A DNA stretch of 42,935 nt from a virus (lineage: Duplodnaviria > Heunggongvirae > Uroviricota > Caudoviricetes): the IMG/VR virus record IMGVR_UViG_2529292907_000021; one strand, given 5' to 3'. Below the pieces are notes generated by a model. It did no database searches. It was not told where the DNA came from and saw only the letters and a program-made list of their open reading frames with translations. Positions 29,244 to 38,858 of the stretch are shown piece after piece; the stretch's first letter is position 1; each line of letters begins with the position of its first letter. Both the position numbers and the translations under genes were made by a program.

Positions 29244-29548
29244 CCCCTCAGGTTACACAGCTCAGGAAAATTAGCTCGCACCAAAGCCTCAGCAAACGGC
29301 GGAGGAACAGCGTTACCGCAGCGGGCAACCTGCTTATCCTTCACGTACTTCTTATCGCTGTAGTCCTGAATAATGATATACAACTAAGGAACATACAGCC
29401 TCATACCAAGATGTTCGGTACCCAGTATCAATTGACCTCAACACATAGCAAGAAGTTATTGCACTCGTTCTCAAAGTAAAACCACCTTGAAAAAGAGATA
29501 TCATTTTGATATCATGTCTTGAGAAACCTCTAGAGGTAAGGATTCATT

Positions 29549-29914
29549 ATGCCCTTAAGCACAGATGTTGATCGTGTGTTAACGTTCACTGAAAGACTTG
29601 AACAAATTTTAATGGAAATGGTCGAAAAACATGACCATTTCTTTGACTTCCTTCGAGTACGGGGTGGACAAAATCTTCCCCAAACTGTTTCAGTAAAAAA
29701 TGAAAAATTCAAAATTAGCATCCCATTGATTATGCTAATTTTGTTAATCACACGCTTAATAGTCTTCAAACTTGCGATTATGTATAAGCTCATAAGATCC
29801 AAAATGCTTGAAGTGAAAGCACTGTCTAAAGTAGGCCAAAACACGCATATCTATCTTTTTGATTTAGATACAGTTCGGAAATTGAACATTAAGGAGACCT
29901 TATGTCACGCATGA
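29549..29914 (+). CDS. First gene of plus-strand cargo operon, unknown function (121 aa; C-terminal half hydrophobic)
   Basis: AGGTAAGGA RBS before the ATG; preceded by a perfect inverted repeat GATATCA-N4-TGATATC (operator-like) and a TTGACC -35-like element; AT-rich. Confidence 0.35.
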   Translation: MPLSTDVDRVLTFTERLEQILMEMVEKHDHFFDFLRVRGGQNLPQTVSVKNEKFKISIPLIMLILLITRLIVFKLAIMYKLIRSKMLEVKALSKVGQNTHIYLFDLDTVRKLNIKETLCHA

Positions 29915-30177
29915 AAAAGCCTGACAGCTTTCTCCTTAGATTCAAAGAAGAAGATGGTATCAACGGTATCAGTTCTGAATCCTTTGAAAAACTAATGAAA
30001 GCTACTGGCATGAGTAAAACAGACCTCATGCATTTTGCACTCGTAAACTTAGTGGAAAAATACATCCCGGCTTATGAGCAAGATGATGGGCCCTTGACCG
30101 AAGCTCAATTCCGGACACTACATGAAAGATCGAAAACTAACCAAACGCCGGATGAGAGTTTCGAAATGCTATTGTAG
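29902..30177 (+). CDS. Putative antitoxin-like small protein (ribbon-helix-helix-like), second gene of cargo operon
   Basis: AAGGAG RBS; 91 aa; a predicted beta-strand (FLLRF) followed by helices (ESFEKLMKATGMSKTDLMHFALVNLVEKY) is consistent with an RHH fold; sits immediately upstream of the MazF-like gene. Confidence 0.4.
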   Translation: MSRMKKPDSFLLRFKEEDGINGISSESFEKLMKATGMSKTDLMHFALVNLVEKYIPAYEQDDGPLTEAQFRTLHERSKTNQTPDESFEMLL

Positions 30178-30185
30178 GTATAAAA

Positions 30186-30587
30186 ATGCATTCGAAAATA
30201 GAACCATTGCCAAAGACCGGCGATATTGTTTGGCTACAACCATCTGAAGAATGGGGAGTTGATACTCCCAAAAGGAGACCAGGTGTGGTATTAGGTGTAT
30301 CGAAACTAAGGCATGAAATCATAGTTGCATTCGGTACGAGCCAAAAAACACACAAACTCTACCCATCAGAGTTTCTTATTCAAAAAGCTGATGGCGATGA
30401 TGTTTTTGGTCTATCTGGGTTAAGCTACGATACTAAATTTGACTTAGCCAGAACATCTATCCTGCCTTTTACTACAGAGTTTTTCTCTAAGGCACCAAGA
30501 AAAAATAATGTCCCTTATCCAAAGCTTGGTAGTGTTCATATAACGTACTACAAAGCGATGTGCAAGGCGAAAAACAATAGTAATTGA
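30186..30587 (+). CDS. MazF/PemK-family toxin-like protein (putative endoribonuclease)
   Basis: Motif GDIVWLQPSEEWGVDTPKRRPGVVLGV...IIVAFGTSQ aligns by eye with the MazF/PemK N-terminal signature (GDLIWVDFDPTKGSEQAGHRPAVVL...CVPCTTQ). Confidence 0.55.
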   Translation: MHSKIEPLPKTGDIVWLQPSEEWGVDTPKRRPGVVLGVSKLRHEIIVAFGTSQKTHKLYPSEFLIQKADGDDVFGLSGLSYDTKFDLARTSILPFTTEFFSKAPRKNNVPYPKLGSVHITYYKAMCKAKNNSN

Positions 30588-30594
30588 CTTCTGA

Positions 30595-30626
30595 AGTGCT
30601 GTAGTATCCACTACAGCACAATTTTC
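30595..30626 (+). terminator. Intrinsic terminator ending the plus-strand cargo operon
   Basis: Hairpin GTGCTGTAG-TATCCA-CTACAGCAC followed by AATTTTCT. Confidence 0.5.
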
Positions 30627-30729: not shown

Positions 30730-31215
30730 TCATACCGAACCGCTTTTAACAAAGATAATCCAGTGAGTTTTGTCGTTCTTTCCGGTACGCTGACCAATTG
30801 CAGGTTTCACATCTGTAAGTGCCAAAATCTGGCTAACAGGGATCTGCGTCTCGTTCCATTTGAATATGAGAACGCCGTGTGGCCACAGTACGCGAAAAGC
30901 CTCTTTGAATCCGCTTCGTAAATCAGAACGCCACGTTTTTTTGTTCAGTCGCCCGTATTTTTTACCCATCCAGGCAGACTGGCCAACGCGCTCGAGGTGC
31001 GGCGGGTCAAACACCACAACCGGAAAAGAAGAATCAGCGAACGGCAGTGAACGAAAATCGGCAATCAGGTCGGGACTGATAACCAGGCGGCGACCGTCGC
31101 ACAGTTCGTGCTCTTCGGCGCGGATATCAGTGAACACGGCGCGGGTGTCCTGCTTGTTGAACCAGAACATGCGGGAGCCGCAGCACATATCAAGAATCGT
31201 CGTGCTGTCGGTCAT
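30730..31215 (-). CDS. Small putative SAM-dependent DNA methyltransferase (start chosen at ATG overlapping upstream stop)
   Basis: Contains a motif I-like ILDMCCGSR and a motif IV-like VVVFDPPH (DPPH/DPPY class of amino-methyltransferases); ATGA overlap with the upstream gene. Confidence 0.4.
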   Translation of the reverse strand: MTDSTTILDMCCGSRMFWFNKQDTRAVFTDIRAEEHELCDGRRLVISPDLIADFRSLPFADSSFPVVVFDPPHLERVGQSAWMGKKYGRLNKKTWRSDLRSGFKEAFRVLWPHGVLIFKWNETQIPVSQILALTDVKPAIGQRTGKNDKTHWIIFVKSGSV

Positions 31216-31523
31216 ACTGATGTTCTCCCGTAAAACGCCAGAACCCGCTGCATCGCCGGACTTGTGCGGCATACTGATGCGACCACGTTTTTTCTCATGC
31301 TCGATTTGAGCTGCTTGATGTTCAGATCCCCGCCGGGCTGAAGCATGTAGACCGGGTGATGCGGATCGCCAGTGCGGATAACTACCGCTCTGCGTACCAG
31401 GTGAAGCAGCAGGTTGTGTGCCTTCTTGCAGTCGCATCCCAGAAGGTTCTGAACCTGACGCGGCGTTACGGTCTGGTTAGCCTGAAGAAAATCAACGATT
31501 GCCCACAGTGATTTGCTTGCCAT
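31212..31523 (-). CDS. Hypothetical phage protein (103 aa), downstream of the DnaC-like gene
   Basis: ORF in operon orientation, translationally coupled to the methyltransferase-like gene. Confidence 0.35.
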   Translation of the reverse strand: MASKSLWAIVDFLQANQTVTPRQVQNLLGCDCKKAHNLLLHLVRRAVVIRTGDPHHPVYMLQPGGDLNIKQLKSSMRKNVVASVCRTSPAMQRVLAFYGRTSV

Positions 31524-31541
31524 AGTGATTTGCCCTCGAAG

Positions 31542-32291
31542 TTATTTAACGATCCGGAGATGACTAACGTTCTTGCGATAGCTGCCCCAGTCAAAGTTCA
31601 CCCACATTCCGCCATCCATCTGGAGGCGATCGATAACCCGCGCACCCAATGCGCCGAGAAGTTCGTAATGGTTCAGATTCGTCAGAACGCCAACCGGGCG
31701 CATCGACGACAGCCGACGATCGATAACCTGATTCAGAATGACTTTCTCCCCGTTGCTACCGCGCTGAATACCGACTTCATCCAGCACCAGCAGATCGACT
31801 TTGCAGAGGTCATCCAGAAGTGAAGCCTCGGATTGACCACCGTCGTAGCACTCGCGAACGCGTAGCATCAGGTCAGGGATTGTCACCACCAGCACTGATT
31901 GGCCACCGGACAGGAGATGATTTCCGATCGCTGCTGCCAGATGGTTTTTCCCGGTACCAGGTCCACCGCTAAACACGAAGCTCGCAAAGCCAGCACCAAA
32001 GTTCTGTGCGTAGCTTTTCGCCATGGTGTAGGCCTTGCGCTGTTGCTCACCGGATACTTCGTAGTTGGCGAACGTGCAGCTGCGGTGCAGGCCCTGGATG
32101 CCAGAACGCCCGAAGATTTTCTCTGTGCGCGCTTTCTGATTCCGCTTGCCCAGCTCTTCGCAATGTTTCAAGCCTTCTTCCCGCTGCCACGCCAGCAGTT
32201 CTGCTGCATTGGTGAACTTCGGCTGTACGCCTGGCGGAATGAGTTTCTTCAGGCGCTCAAGAGCGCTGCCGGAATTAACAATGTTTTTCAC
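31542..32291 (-). CDS. Replication protein, DnaC-like helicase loader (IstB-like AAA+ ATPase)
   Basis: Walker A motif GGPGTGKNHLAAAI and Walker B-like LLVLDEVG; 249 aa; immediately downstream of the O-like initiator. Confidence 0.75.
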   Translation of the reverse strand: MKNIVNSGSALERLKKLIPPGVQPKFTNAAELLAWQREEGLKHCEELGKRNQKARTEKIFGRSGIQGLHRSCTFANYEVSGEQQRKAYTMAKSYAQNFGAGFASFVFSGGPGTGKNHLAAAIGNHLLSGGQSVLVVTIPDLMLRVRECYDGGQSEASLLDDLCKVDLLVLDEVGIQRGSNGEKVILNQVIDRRLSSMRPVGVLTNLNHYELLGALGARVIDRLQMDGGMWVNFDWGSYRKNVSHLRIVK

Positions 32292-32293
32292 CG

Positions 32294-33238
32294 TTACCCC
32301 CTGAATCCGGTTGGGATGGTTTTATCTGGCTCAGAAATGCGGTTCACATCCCTTCCCGTTTTGCGGTCGTTGAGAGCGAACTTCGGTTTGAACAGTCCCT
32401 GGTAGCCGTTGGCGATACTGGTGTTGATCACGTCAACCGGGTCATGCCCTGCGTCCAGGCATGCCTTCAGCAACTTGAACGCTTTGGTGACCGTCAGTTC
32501 GGTCTTGATGGCTTTGCCAGACTGCTGGCGATAGGAAACCCACTCACCCCAGGACACAGAATCAAGCCACTCAGGAACGAGAATTGTCAGCGGGTCAAAC
32601 TTCACCTTCCCCCCTGGGGGATTAGAGGGGGTTAGATCTGTTTTTATATTTGTCTTTGGAAGAATGTCTTTGGTGTTCCCTGTTTTCAGGGATACCTCTC
32701 CCTGTTTTTGGGGATGGTTATCCCCGTTTTCAGGGATAGCTGAAGGGGTAAAATTGCTATCCCTGAATTCGGGGATGGTAATAACCCATGTAACAACTTC
32801 AGCAGCAGGAAACACCGCTGGACACTTCATGCAATTTGGCTTGGTATACGCCCATTTATCCAGGCTGGTATTAATCCCAATGTATCTGGTTTGCCCAATG
32901 CGGCGCAGGATGATGATGTTCCGATAGGCTAGGCTCAGCACGGCTTCTGAGACGTGTTTCACCTTAAGCGTCGTTTTGTCTGCAATGAGGCTATTGGCGA
33001 TGCGGTCCGAACTCTTGGACCAGCCATAGGTCAGACGAACGATAGCGTTCAGCACCCGGAACTCACGCCCGGATAGTTCGACGATACACAGGGCATCCTG
33101 AATCTGGTTGGCCAGGCGCAAATAGCCTTTCTCCAGCTCAGCCATGCTGCTCTCCTGTTTCCCCTGCTGCGTGGGGAATTTGAATATTTCAGCGGTATTT
33201 GACATACTGTTCTCCGCAATTACCTTCCGTTTTTGCAC
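32294..33238 (-). CDS. Replication initiator O-like protein (contains origin iterons); start uncertain
   Basis: 314-aa ORF upstream of the DnaC-like gene; its coding sequence contains four ~18-bp iterons resembling lambda ori repeats. Confidence 0.6.
   Translation of the reverse strand: MQKRKVIAENSMSNTAEIFKFPTQQGKQESSMAELEKGYLRLANQIQDALCIVELSGREFRVLNAIVRLTYGWSKSSDRIANSLIADKTTLKVKHVSEAVLSLAYRNIIILRRIGQTRYIGINTSLDKWAYTKPNCMKCPAVFPAAEVVTWVITIPEFRDSNFTPSAIPENGDNHPQKQGEVSLKTGNTKDILPKTNIKTDLTPSNPPGGKVKFDPLTILVPEWLDSVSWGEWVSYRQQSGKAIKTELTVTKAFKLLKACLDAGHDPVDVINTSIANGYQGLFKPKFALNDRKTGRDVNRISEPDKTIPTGFRG
32680..32790 (-). repeat. Origin-of-replication iterons (four ~18-bp repeats, consensus near TCCCTGTTTTCAGGGATA) with adjacent AT-rich stretch
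   Basis: Plus-strand copies: TCCCTGTTTTCAGGGATA, TCCCTGTTTTTGGGGATGG, ATCCCCGTTTTCAGGGATA, ATCCCTGAATTCGGGGATGG; the AT-rich segment at ~32630-32670 lies downstream in the O-gene direction, as in lambda ori. Confidence 0.6.
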
Positions 33239-33289
33239 CTGAAAGCCGTTGGTGTTCTAGCACCGCGGCTTTCGCCATTTTTGAACCCG

Positions 33290-33829
33290 TCATACAGCCC
33301 CCAGCATCAACTGCACCATCTCCATCAGCGGACCGGTTAAGCCAGGGTCAACGCGGTACATCTCCACGATCCCCTCGCTCAGCTCTTTCAGCTTCTGATG
33401 ACGCGGCGCATCCATTGCGACAGCTATCTTCGCTTCGCTGGTTTCCTTCTCCATACGTGCCAGACGGGCCATGACGTTGTCTTCTGGCAGCAGGCGACTG
33501 CGGTACACAATCGGCAGAACGGCGAGGATTGCAGGAGTCAGCTGGCGGACGTTCTCGCGGTAACGTTCGCTGTTGAAATGGTTATCCAGGAAGCGGAAAA
33601 GCTTCTGGCGCTTTCGGCAGAGATCGTCAGGGAAAGTGATGTCATCACCACCCTGTGCCTGGTACTCTTCGATGATCAGAGCCGTAACTACGTCCTGACC
33701 ATCGGCACCAGCCCAGGAGCGGACCGCGTCACGAATATCTTCGTGGCTCGGCCCCCTACGTGCTTGAGCGCGATTTATCATTACCCCTTGAGTAATGTCG
33801 CTATCATTCTGGTAAGTAAGTGTCTGCAT
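33290..33829 (-). CDS. YdaT-like early regulatory protein (Rac-type immunity region)
   Basis: Segments IIEEYQAQGG and QLTPAILAVLPIVYRSRL resemble Rac YdaT as recalled; located immediately after the Cro/YdaS-like gene. Confidence 0.5.
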   Translation of the reverse strand: MQTLTYQNDSDITQGVMINRAQARRGPSHEDIRDAVRSWAGADGQDVVTALIIEEYQAQGGDDITFPDDLCRKRQKLFRFLDNHFNSERYRENVRQLTPAILAVLPIVYRSRLLPEDNVMARLARMEKETSEAKIAVAMDAPRHQKLKELSEGIVEMYRVDPGLTGPLMEMVQLMLGAV

Positions 33830-36098: not shown

Positions 36099-38858
36099 AT
36101 GGAATTCTTTAATGTGGTTAAAGCCACTCAGAAATCCGGAAAACAAGATGCAGTGGTCTGGTTCACTGCGAAAACCGAGGCTCGCGCCAACCTGCAACTG
36201 GACGTTGCACTGGAAGATGCTGGCATCGAAATGGGTCGCGGTAAGGACTACGCCAAACCGATTCGCACAGATTTTCCTGTTGTTGATGACCTGCCAGAAG
36301 AAGGCGAAGTTGATTTCACATGGTGCGAACGTTACGAACTGGCCGAAGACCAGCGCACCTGGAATGTTAAGCAACAGGCTGAAGATGAGTCTGTCGACGA
36401 CGCCGATACTGAAGACAGCACCGCAGAAGAATCTCAGCAGTCAGAGCAGCCGAACCTGATCGTCGTTGCCACCCTGCCATTCCGTCAGCGCGTACTGGCT
36501 CAGTTCATCGGTGATGGTGAATATCTCTATCACGTCGACGCTGGGCAGAAAAACGAGATTGTCCGCCTTGAGATGGACACTGATAACGCGTACGCCCAAA
36601 ACCTGCTGCTGGCTGCTGAGAATGTGGAAGCATTCAAAAAAGCCATTGAGCACGATATCCATAAAGTCGTGAATGCCGTTAAGAAAGCCTTCCCTGTCGA
36701 CGGTAAAAAACCGGAACTGGCAACAGTTATCCAGTTCCTGACGGTGTGGTTCAACACTGATTACATCGACCGTGGCATCCTGGCGCGCGAATGGACCGCC
36801 GGTAACCGCATCAGCAATGTTCAGCGCACCGATTCCGGTACCAACGCCGACGGCGGATATGTCACTGACCGTGGCGAAAATGCTTACCACACGCTGGATA
36901 CTCTGGATTTAGAGATTGCCTGCGCCCTGCTCCCAATGGACTTTAACCATCTTGAAATCCTGGGCAGCATCCACCGCCGCGCCAAAGAGATAGTGGCCAA
37001 CAAAGAACAACCATGGAAATCATGGAGCAGCATCCTGCGCAATCAGCCTGGCGTTCTGTCGGTAAACCGCGCTGCCATCTTCAATCTGGTGCGCATCGCG
37101 CCGGAAAATATTCACCTGACGCCAGTTGCACATCTGGAGTTCGTTAACCAGACCATGACAGCTGAGTTCAATTCAGCAACTGAGTTGCTGCCGTTGCCAG
37201 TAGCTGGCGCGCAGGAACCAAACAGTCAGGATCAACCTCGAGTTGAGAATCTTGGCGCTGGAATTTTCTCCATAGAAAGCCTGATGGGTGATCAACAACC
37301 AAAAACAGATGACCGTTCACCACTTAATGAGGAAACCACCAGCGATGTGCAGATGGAAGAAACTGTCAGTGATGAAGAACAGGCTGGTAATGAAGTGCAG
37401 CCAGGCGAAAGCAGTCTGGAAACTGGTGAAGAGTCACATACCGGCCAGCAAGCCGATGTAAACCAGAATGCGGACTCTGTCGTCCAAAATAGCGATTCTG
37501 TAAACCAAGCCGAACCAGTTGCTGCGCAAACCGAGCCAGAAGCGAAATCTGACGAACCGGCTGTTGTGTATCCCGCTTACTTCGAGCCTGGGCGCTATGA
37601 AGGTCTGCCGAACGAGGTTTATCACGCAGCGAACGGGATCAGCAGCACGCAGGTAAAAGATGCCCGCGTCAGCCTGATGTACTTCAACGCACGCCACGTC
37701 GCCAAAACGATCACCAAAGAGCGTTCTCCAGTTCTGGACATGGGTAACCTGGTGCATGGACTGGCGTTGCAGCCAGAGCAGCTTGATGAAGAGTTCAGCG
37801 TTGAACCGATGATCCCGGAAGGCGCGTTCACCACGACGGCAACAATCCGCGCGTTTATCGATGAGTACAACGCAGGTCTGCCAGAGCAATTGAGCGCCGA
37901 CGACATAAAGACATTGCTCGAGGAATACAACGCCACTCTGCCTGCTCAGGTACCACTGGGTGGTTCAGTCGAGGAAACTGGCCAGAGCTACATGTCGCTG
38001 CCAGAAGAGTACCAGCGGATCGAAGCGGACCAGAAGCAGACCGCAGCGGCGATGAAAGCCTGCATCAAGGAATACAACGCCAATCTGCCTGCCCAGGTGA
38101 AAACCAGTGGTAGCCGTGATGCCTTACTCGAGCAGCTGGCAATCATCAATCCTGACCTGGTGGCGCAGGAAGCGCAGAAACCGCAACCGCTGAAAGTGTC
38201 CGGTACCAAAGCGGATCTGATTCAGACCGTGAAGTCTGTGAAACCAGACGCCGTCTTTGCCGACGAACTGCTGGATGCGTGGCGCGAGAATCCGCAAGGG
38301 AAAGTACTGGTCACCCGCCAGCAACTGAGCACCGCACTGGCCATTCAGAAAGCCCTGCTACAGCACCCAACTGCCGGGATGCTGCTTCAGTACCCGAGTC
38401 GCGCCGTTGAGGTCAGCTATTTTGGCTTTGACGATGAAACCGGTCTGGAAGTCCGCGTTCGTCCAGACCTTGAGATCGACCTGGACGGAGTGCGCATCGG
38501 TGCCGACCTGAAAACCATCAGCATGTGGAACATTAAGCAGGAAGGCCTGCGCGCCAAGCTGCACCGGGAAATCATCGACCGTGACTACCATCTGAGCGCC
38601 GCCATGTATTGCGAGACCGCAGCACTGGACCAGTTCTTCTGGATTTTCGTCAACAAGGACGAGAACTACCACTGGATCGCCATCATCGAGGCATCCGCCG
38701 AACTGCTGGAGCTGGGCATGCTTGAGTACCGCAAATCAATGCGTGCTATCGCTACCGGCTTTGACACTGGCGAATGGCCAGCGCCCATCACAGCTGATTA
38801 TACCGACGAACTGAACGACTTCGACCTGCGCCGCCTTGAAGCGCTGCGTCTGGCTTAA
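36099..38858 (+). CDS. RecE-like exonuclease VIII (long acidic N-terminal region plus C-terminal PD-(D/E)xK nuclease domain)
   Basis: 919 aa; C-terminal ~300 aa contain a PD-(D/E)xK-like arrangement (...RPDLEIDLDG...GADLKT...); immediately upstream of a RecT-family gene, as in Rac recE-recT. Confidence 0.55.
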   Translation: MEFFNVVKATQKSGKQDAVVWFTAKTEARANLQLDVALEDAGIEMGRGKDYAKPIRTDFPVVDDLPEEGEVDFTWCERYELAEDQRTWNVKQQAEDESVDDADTEDSTAEESQQSEQPNLIVVATLPFRQRVLAQFIGDGEYLYHVDAGQKNEIVRLEMDTDNAYAQNLLLAAENVEAFKKAIEHDIHKVVNAVKKAFPVDGKKPELATVIQFLTVWFNTDYIDRGILAREWTAGNRISNVQRTDSGTNADGGYVTDRGENAYHTLDTLDLEIACALLPMDFNHLEILGSIHRRAKEIVANKEQPWKSWSSILRNQPGVLSVNRAAIFNLVRIAPENIHLTPVAHLEFVNQTMTAEFNSATELLPLPVAGAQEPNSQDQPRVENLGAGIFSIESLMGDQQPKTDDRSPLNEETTSDVQMEETVSDEEQAGNEVQPGESSLETGEESHTGQQADVNQNADSVVQNSDSVNQAEPVAAQTEPEAKSDEPAVVYPAYFEPGRYEGLPNEVYHAANGISSTQVKDARVSLMYFNARHVAKTITKERSPVLDMGNLVHGLALQPEQLDEEFSVEPMIPEGAFTTTATIRAFIDEYNAGLPEQLSADDIKTLLEEYNATLPAQVPLGGSVEETGQSYMSLPEEYQRIEADQKQTAAAMKACIKEYNANLPAQVKTSGSRDALLEQLAIINPDLVAQEAQKPQPLKVSGTKADLIQTVKSVKPDAVFADELLDAWRENPQGKVLVTRQQLSTALAIQKALLQHPTAGMLLQYPSRAVEVSYFGFDDETGLEVRVRPDLEIDLDGVRIGADLKTISMWNIKQEGLRAKLHREIIDRDYHLSAAMYCETAALDQFFWIFVNKDENYHWIAIIEASAELLELGMLEYRKSMRAIATGFDTGEWPAPITADYTDELNDFDLRRLEALRLA

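Follow-up and report, generated by a model that had tools for sequence, protein, structure and literature searches.

Orphan methylases of phages are typically accessory and mosaic genes. Among the closest described systems are the small phage Dam enzymes of family PF05869, which have a catalytic part of 140-175 amino acids (aa), carry no separate recognition domain and, in phages HP1 and phiNP, are encoded behind the replication module. The HP1 enzyme, located behind rep, is a methylase of 173 aa. PamA, encoded by a variant of Staphylococcus aureus phage phi11, has 141 aa and an NPPY motif and methylates GATC (PMC12435837); it is a precedent for a very small phage DNA methylase and was kept as a precedent for size only. 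The orphan enzymes M.EcoGII, Hia5 and M.EcoGIX are found in prophages and on plasmids, are silent at rest, are broad or degenerate in specificity and guard DNA as it enters or replicates. Here we analyze a 161-aa protein encoded at 30730..31215 on the minus strand of IMG/VR virus record IMGVR_UViG_2529292907_000021 (Caudoviricetes; 42,935 nucleotides (nt), the whole of which is termed the window). The window is a lambda-like Escherichia coli prophage. The protein, which begins MTDSTTILDMCCGSR, is very probably an active S-adenosylmethionine (SAM)-dependent methyltransferase, and by analogy it likely works most like the small orphan phage DNA methylases. We favor, at a probability of roughly 0.6, that it is a minimal methyltransferase with a core of ~155 aa, that replicating phage DNA is its target and that its role is protective.

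A first-pass annotation, made from the letters of the window, had described the gene as methyltransferase-like on account of the motifs ILDMCCGSR and FDPPH. The ~161-aa protein does contain these motifs, at residues 7-15 and 69-73. The SAM-binding and DPPH motifs were both found intact and a methyltransferase fold was predicted (AlphaFold2 and Foldseek), in support of that description. A profile search had been proposed as a check. Matches over the full length were found to phrog_954 of PHROGs, labelled 'DNA methyltransferase' (1.1e-85, residues 2-159), and to MTase_II PDLC03288 of PADLOC (2.1e-71, residues 6-158), with oMTase PDLC03730 of PADLOC at 1.5e-48. In Pfam, only the generic families Methyltransf_11 (20.5 bits compared to a cut-off of 21.2) and Methyltransf_25 were matched, both below threshold. 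Other members of the family reached an E-value of 4e-10 with Methyltransf_11, and 26 of 26 diverse members matched it at E<=1. No dedicated Pfam family matched the window protein, and a search of NCBIfam with it gave nothing useful. The family is already catalogued in phage and restriction-modification (REBASE-type) model sets. The PHROG 954, PADLOC and RefSeq labels are computational groupings, and the word DNA in the label is itself unverified. An identical protein is present at NCBI as 'class I SAM-dependent methyltransferase [Escherichia coli]' on 14 contigs. For an E. coli prophage, an accessory early gene of this kind is ordinary, and the one in the window had been deposited before under a generic annotation.

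The family is large, with 4045 homologues at E<=1e-5 (best 1e-102) and 1996 clusters at E<=1e-3 in an exhaustive search of representatives at 50% identity. The ratio of nonsynonymous to synonymous substitution rates (dN/dS) had a median of 0.08 between the window gene and 27 related viral loci with unsaturated synonymous sites. The open reading frame (ORF) is a real functional gene under purifying selection, beyond what chance would give. Residues D9, G13, D30, D53, P71 and P72 were invariant among the 26 diverse members, and D70 and H73 were at least 90% conserved. The elements LD9-x3-G13, D30 and D53-F54 were invariant or nearly so and could be aligned to Methyltransf_11, Methyltransf_25 and the sequence 'kvLDlaCGvG' of PH0226. 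The DPPH form was found in 262 of the 266 collected proteins that bear such a motif. A histidine in the fourth position of motif IV is unusual for amino-methyltransferases.

The AlphaFold2 model, built on the alignment of the 26 diverse members, had a predicted local distance difference test (pLDDT) value of 93.6 and a predicted template modeling (pTM) score of 0.88. It showed the seven-stranded core of a class I methyltransferase with the last strand in a hairpin, the strands being located at residues 7-9, 26-30, 43-46, 64-69, 110-121, 138-144 and 150-156. Helices were found only at 82-87, 95-109 and 127-131. The model is atypical in that loops and a small hairpin stand in for the usual helices between beta-1 and beta-4. 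All top matches in a Foldseek comparison with the PDB were class I methyltransferases, albeit generic ones with a template modeling (TM) score of at most 0.63. Trm11 (6zxv) was the top match (2e-6, TM 0.59), and Bud23, PH0226 (TM 0.63) and NRMT1 were also found. Among viral models one family member was matched (TM 0.91) and the remaining matches were generic. When the PDB was searched by sequence, the single protein and the family profile both gave generic weak matches only and no solved structure. It is well supported that the window protein is a stripped-down Rossmann-type class I SAM-dependent methyltransferase.

The open frame of the methyltransferase extends upstream to 31437 (235 aa), overlapping the Ren-like ORF in another frame. 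We took the ATG at 31215 as the start because a Shine-Dalgarno-like sequence precedes it, because it overlaps the stop codon of the Ren-like ORF, because the N-termini of close homologues (MTDTATILDMCCG and MTGHAAILDMCCG) agree with it and because the N-terminal extensions of other family members were not conserved in the alignment of diverse members. As such extensions are not conserved, the idea that they might conceal a recognition domain was rejected too, and start codons called differently probably account for them. An overlap of 4 nt between the methyltransferase gene and the gene upstream of it is common in related loci.

The gene order on the minus strand is CII-like, O-like, DnaC-like, Ren-like and methyltransferase, with HolE-theta-like, NinB, NinG and Q genes further on. 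Among the genes identified in the early-right operon the methyltransferase comes fifth, and its earlier placement in an early operon downstream of replication genes was correct. No neighbouring ORF scanned from 24.4 to 33.8 kb matched a restriction endonuclease family, and restriction endonucleases were absent from the ten commonest neighbour families annotated from 82 related viral loci. Ren-like and DnaC-like ORFs, nin genes and a toxin-antitoxin-like cassette make up the scanned neighbours, none of which is the adjoining cognate endonuclease of a Type II restriction-modification system. The first-pass annotation had proposed an orphan DNA methyltransferase with no restriction endonuclease beside it, serving in anti-restriction or epigenetic marking. 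Methyltransferase and orphan both stood, whereas DNA as the substrate and either of these roles stay putative; the protein has no recognition domain and no match to a DNA-methylase family of Pfam.

By tblastn the protein was found in 253 phage records, the hosts including Streptococcus, Vibrio, Acinetobacter, Porphyromonas, Listeria, Gordonia (64% identity), Enterococcus, Lactobacillus and Staphylococcus. An identity of 47-64% is kept across phages of at least four bacterial phyla. In annotated phages, also of at least four phyla, the gene is located right behind the replication module or in the early block. It follows the primase in a Porphyromonas phage, O-like genes in a Vibrio phage, the RepA nickase and SSB in a P2-like Mannheimia phage, the loader and SSB in a Streptococcus phage, RecT, a DnaD/DnaB-domain protein and RusA in an Enterococcus phage, and a C5 methylase in a Gordonia phage, and it is found just past the replication module in a Corynebacterium phage. 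Clustering of the neighbours in the 82 related loci revealed no conserved partner gene. The commonest neighbours were integrase (22 loci), NinB (14), deoxynucleoside monophosphate (dNMP) phosphatase (11) and CII-like proteins, DnaC-like loaders and P-like loaders (10 each); the two kinds of loader and NinB provide a DNA-related context. The Ren-like ORF of the window is likewise context and not a conserved partner, since no upstream neighbour was conserved in these loci.

A C5-cytosine DNA methylase (PF00145) was encoded on the same strand within the 4-kb flanks of 14 of the 82 loci, and within ~1.1 kb in 13 of them. The C5 methylase overlaps the small methyltransferase gene by 4 nt in Gordonia phage Nymphadora, and in the closest relative (L040) a full 716-aa C5 methylase gene is located 0.8 kb downstream of it. 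Most of the C5 methylase of the window has been deleted or replaced, and a remnant is left (Table 1). Common 248-aa variants of the small methyltransferase carry a C-terminal module of ~85 aa (phrog_16025), for which no Pfam match was found. This module is also found in Citrobacter phage phiNP, where its partner in the fusion is a Dam DNA adenine methylase of PF05869 and the fused gene occupies the matching slot between a replication gene and a C5 methylase. We infer DNA as the substrate because the gene adjoins the replication module, because it often adjoins C5 methylases, because family members can carry a C-terminal module shared with a PF05869 Dam and because the family is contained in REBASE-type model sets. 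The modified base, the catalytic activity and an anti-restriction role are inferred as well.

The gene would be repressed in the lysogen, and after induction or infection the early-right transcript would carry it behind the replication functions, with translation coupled to the upstream Ren-like ORF. SAM would be bound through the D9...G13 loop, D30 and D53-F54. In class I methyltransferases an acidic residue at the end of beta-2 contacts the SAM ribose, and we assign this role to D30. DPPH behind beta-4 would position an exocyclic amino nitrogen for methyl transfer. The most likely substrate would be replicating phage DNA, modified at adenine N6 or cytosine N4, and the orphan enzyme would thereby shield progeny genomes from host restriction. 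The specificity is probably short or degenerate and identical in all members. A sequence preference that is short, degenerate or absent is suggested by the lack of a recognition domain together with the near uniformity of the family across phyla.

Several observations weigh against DNA as the target. The window protein gave no match to the DNA-methylase profiles of Pfam (N6_Mtase, N6_N4_Mtase, MethyltransfD12, Dam and MT-A70), and N6_N4_Mtase was matched only weakly in 5 of the 26 diverse members (best E 0.0017). The 161 aa are taken up by the catalytic core, which leaves no space for a target-recognition domain, and no hypervariable insert was seen. The nearest solved structures, at low TM, were mostly RNA, protein and small-molecule methyltransferases, and M.TaqI (PDB 1aqi) was found at rank 38 (9e-5, TM 0.51). 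Kinship with HP1 Dam of PF05869 was tried and rejected, hhalign giving a probability of 0.3%, albeit in a weak test with one template sequence and a gappy query alignment. The isoelectric point (pI) ranged from 5.1 to 9.8 across members and was not uniformly basic; we dropped it as a test of nucleic-acid binding, as this range is uninformative. We found no experimental study of any family member in the literature. Motifs of the type (D/N)PP(Y/F/H) occur in RNA m2G and m6A methyltransferases and in protein methyltransferases. (D/N)PPx motifs have also been described to serve amino-methylation of RNA and protein (PMC3299994). According to a preprint, a small MT-A70 enzyme of a Stx phage that is annotated 'adenine DNA methyltransferase' prefers 16S rRNA in combination with a partner.

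The comparison with known systems shows how far each likeness goes. PF05869 Dam enzymes and the DPPH family are alike in size and in the lack of a separate recognition domain, and in both a motif I-like segment precedes an (N/D)PPx motif near residue 65-70. Both are encoded behind the replication module (HP1 and phiNP for Dam), and both can carry the ~85-aa C-terminal module and precede a C5 methylase (phiNP for Dam). They differ in that the window protein has no PF05869 match and has DPPH where the Dam enzymes have NPPY; as the two kinds of gene co-occur in some loci they are not simple alternatives. In gamma-class amino DNA methyltransferases motif I precedes motif IV. M.TaqI of this class shares that order, and an (N/D)PP(Y/H)-type motif IV, with the window protein, but retains the usual Rossmann helices and adds a large recognition domain at the C-terminus. 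The likeness to M.EcoGII, Hia5 and M.EcoGIX is a functional analogy for an enzyme without a recognition domain; these three have DPPY, belong to the alpha or beta class and are ~280 aa or longer, unlike the 161-aa DPPH protein. As relatives they were rejected: M.EcoGIX and M.BceJIII, which methylate single-stranded SAY, belong to the beta class, have DPPY and are carried by plasmids, and in M.EcoGIX motif IV comes first whereas in the window protein motif I precedes motif IV; Hia5, Hin1523 and M.EcoGII are Dam-related proteins of ~281 aa with a divergent recognition region. The RNA m2G methyltransferases Trm11 and RsmD have a DPPY or DPPF motif behind beta-4. Here the likeness is at the level of the generic fold; the window protein has no THUMP or other RNA-binding domain, and Trm11 and RsmD are housekeeping enzymes whereas the window family is found in a phage context. 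Profiles of RNA m2G families do not place it among them (Cons_hypoth95 was weak in 2 of the 26 members and UPF0020, 8vyd, gave E 2).

An RNA methyltransferase that modifies universally conserved rRNA or tRNA of the host in the lytic cycle, for instance in order to adjust translation or to oppose defences that target RNA, would agree with the best structural matches, which were Trm11 (m2G10), Bud23 (m7G), TrmM (m6A37) and an rRNA m4,2C synthase, although these are generic at a TM of only 0.5-0.6. It would also agree with the weak profile affinity around DPPH to RsmD-like proteins (Cons_hypoth95, 2ift) and UPF0020, with the absence of a target-recognition domain and with the identity of 47-64% over at least four phyla without a variable region, as expected for an invariant target. 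One phage has an RtcB-annotated gene and a tRNA adjoining the family member, and the preprint on the Stx phage, in which the MT-A70 enzyme and PNB-2 methylate 16S rRNA, provides a precedent, albeit from an unrelated family. We nevertheless regard an RNA target, though a serious alternative, as rather improbable: the protein has no RNA-binding module such as THUMP or PUA and no conserved partner subunit, and its gene clusters with DNA methylases and replication genes. The precedent enzyme itself, M.ECPA8_3172P, was tried as a relative and found unrelated, as BLASTP revealed no similarity and gp5 of phage PA8 belongs to PF05063 (MT-A70). The Ren-like ORF upstream of the window methyltransferase is unrelated to PNB-2. 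The PA8 enzyme is a reason to treat the label 'DNA methylase' with care when the enzyme is a small one from a phage. The MT-A70 protein encoded by gp5 of Stx2a phage PA8 (gp5-gp6 at L092, 2228-3282) has 208 aa, with DPPW located at residues 10-13; its gene shares 4 nt with that of PNB-2, in which a weak HTH_11 signal was found.

Even less probable in our view is a target other than a nucleic-acid polymer, that is, a protein or a small molecule such as a host factor, a nucleotide or a defence signalling molecule. The sole Pfam matches, to generic Methyltransf_11 and Methyltransf_25, are typical of such methyltransferases, some members are named 'UbiE-like' by the Joint Genome Institute (JGI), and phosphatidylethanolamine N-methyltransferase and NRMT1 were among the top Foldseek matches. 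The pI is not consistently basic, and the protein is very small and has no substrate-recognition domain. However, the near-invariant DPPH is typical of methylation of planar amino groups, as in bases and glutamine, the neighbours are mainly genes for DNA replication, recombination and DNA methylases, and no metabolic neighbours recur. Finally, the protein might have little or no activity alone, either as a catalytic subunit that depends on a partner, from host or phage, to reach its target or as a SAM-binding protein whose benefit lies in sequestering SAM. The missing helices between beta-1 and beta-4 may, according to the model, expose a face of the sheet to a partner, a recognition domain is again absent, and partners are known for M.EcoGIX, which acts with DNA polymerase I (PMC7736820), and for M.ECPA8_3172P, which acts with PNB-2. 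Against this, no neighbour is conserved, the largest neighbour cluster being integrase in 22 of 82 loci, and the strict conservation of motif IV argues for chemistry over mere binding. We consider this the least probable of the explanations.

A more far-reaching proposal, possible but on the doubtful side, is that the family represents a universal mini-methyltransferase of temperate phages whose lack of sequence specificity makes a recognition domain unnecessary. It would be either a DNA methyltransferase giving pan-restriction protection, acting on adenine or cytosine in nearly every context in replicating or single-stranded phage DNA, or an enzyme whose target is an invariant host RNA or protein and not DNA. 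Either branch, if true, would explain the identity of 47-64% between phages of Proteobacteria, Firmicutes, Actinobacteria and Bacteroidetes, and in the case of non-specific DNA methylation the 155-aa scaffold would be unrelated to M.EcoGII, Hia5 and M.EcoGIX. A non-specific enzyme could also become a very small tool for the footprinting methods that now use Hia5 or M.EcoGII. For the window alone the gene matters little. At the level of the family, ~2000 clusters of a 155-aa enzyme without a recognition domain are listed as 'DNA methyltransferase' in phage and defence databases, so that knowledge of substrate and specificity would improve the annotation of thousands of prophages; such knowledge would further reveal if a Rossmann core this minimal is enough for broad anti-restriction methylation.

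Table 1. Coordinates of the methyltransferase gene, its motifs and the surrounding features in the window.
Feature	Position	Strand	Basis or remark
Coding sequence, small SAM-dependent methyltransferase (DPPH family; PHROG 954 / PADLOC PDLC03288)	30730..31215	-	Profile matches, homologues, dN/dS, AlphaFold2
Motif I, ILDMCCGSR, residues 7-15 (end of beta-1 and SAM-binding loop)	31171..31197	-	Aligned to Methyltransf_11/25 and PH0226
D30 codon, acidic residue ending beta-2 (motif II)	31126..31128	-	Invariant in alignment; ends strand 26-30 in model
Motif IV, FDPPH, residues 69-73, right behind beta-4; (D/N/S)PP(Y/F/W/H)-type amino-methyltransferase signature	30997..31011	-	Conservation; follows strand 64-69
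Shine-Dalgarno-like GGGAGA, 8 nt ahead of ATG	31224..31229	-	Read from sequence
ATGA, stop of Ren-like ORF overlapping methyltransferase start (translational coupling)	31212..31215	-	Sequence
CII-like	33290-33829	-	Replication/regulation block of the methyltransferase operon
O-like initiator	32294-33238	-	Replication/regulation block of the methyltransferase operon
DnaC-like loader	31542-32291	-	Replication/regulation block of the methyltransferase operon
Ren-like exclusion / winged-helix-like ORF, 103 aa	31212..31523	-	phrog_142 at 2.8e-27
C5-cytosine DNA methylase remnant, last ~42 codons (…DKQVARCGNAVPPPFAEALVRANFPELC…)	29255..29389	-	tblastn 4e-13; blastn to L040 7230-7348; PF00145 on full-length relatives
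Opposite-strand cassette between methyltransferase and C5 remnant	29487..30619	+	Replaces module-plus-C5-methylase segment
Cassette promoter-like site, extended -10	29487-29515	+	Sequence
Cassette ORFs	29549-29914, 29902-30177, 30186-30587	+	ORF list
Cassette terminator-like hairpin, 10-bp stem	30596-30619	+	Sequence

The last ORF of the plus-strand cassette was found to be weakly MazF/PemK-like (22.4 bits in Pfam compared to a cut-off of 23.1), which suggests that the cassette is a toxin-antitoxin-like moron. The arrangement recurs in several E. coli genomes.

The methyltransferase is a mobile accessory gene of the early region, and mosaic, because a prophage with a nearly identical replication block lacks it. 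This prophage, L090 in E. coli GZ2408P, has a cII-O-DnaC-ren block 93% identical to positions 31212-33781 of the window, and the similarity ends exactly at the ren stop and methyltransferase start, which represents a mosaic joint. Related E. coli prophages carry a RecE-family exonuclease gene past the immunity region, and the window has a 919-aa ORF (36099-38858, plus strand) at the matching relative position.

Outside phages, the protein was matched in 61 plasmid records, most of them non-mobilizable and two conjugative. A role in the leading region of conjugative plasmids was rejected on this distribution. Megaplasmids of Ralstonia solanacearum (H66-H72) carry four to five copies of the family per record of ~2 Mb, which is unusual for a phage accessory gene.

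In Corynebacterium phage Adelaide (L085, 2357-3423) a gene with the annotation RtcB follows the family member and overlaps it, with a tRNA-Leu nearby. The RtcB-annotated gene encodes 170 aa, much shorter than a normal RtcB, and was the sole RNA-related neighbour seen. The orthologous methyltransferase gene in E. coli NZ_LT883142 (L001, 3994-4471) carries the annotation of a frameshifted pseudogene, and a tRNA-Ile gene lies ~220 bp downstream of it; no tRNA was found in the window. One collected protein, P0017 (266 aa, Logan contig), has a PF14072-type N-terminus with a DGQHR motif joined to the methyltransferase from residue 16, with motif I lost, and this chimera is probably a product of recombination or insertion.

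The phrog_16025 module was located directly upstream of a C5 methylase wherever the neighbour was checked in the loci and phage records. It was found free-standing, fused to the DPPH methyltransferase in the 248-aa variants and fused to PF05869 Dam, with positions at L040 (5005-5316), L094 (2498-2755) and L093 (~2440-2701) and at the C-terminus of P0004, P0013 and P0038. By tblastn the module was also found inside sb44 of ST64B and genes like it that bear the annotation 'PAPS reductase'.

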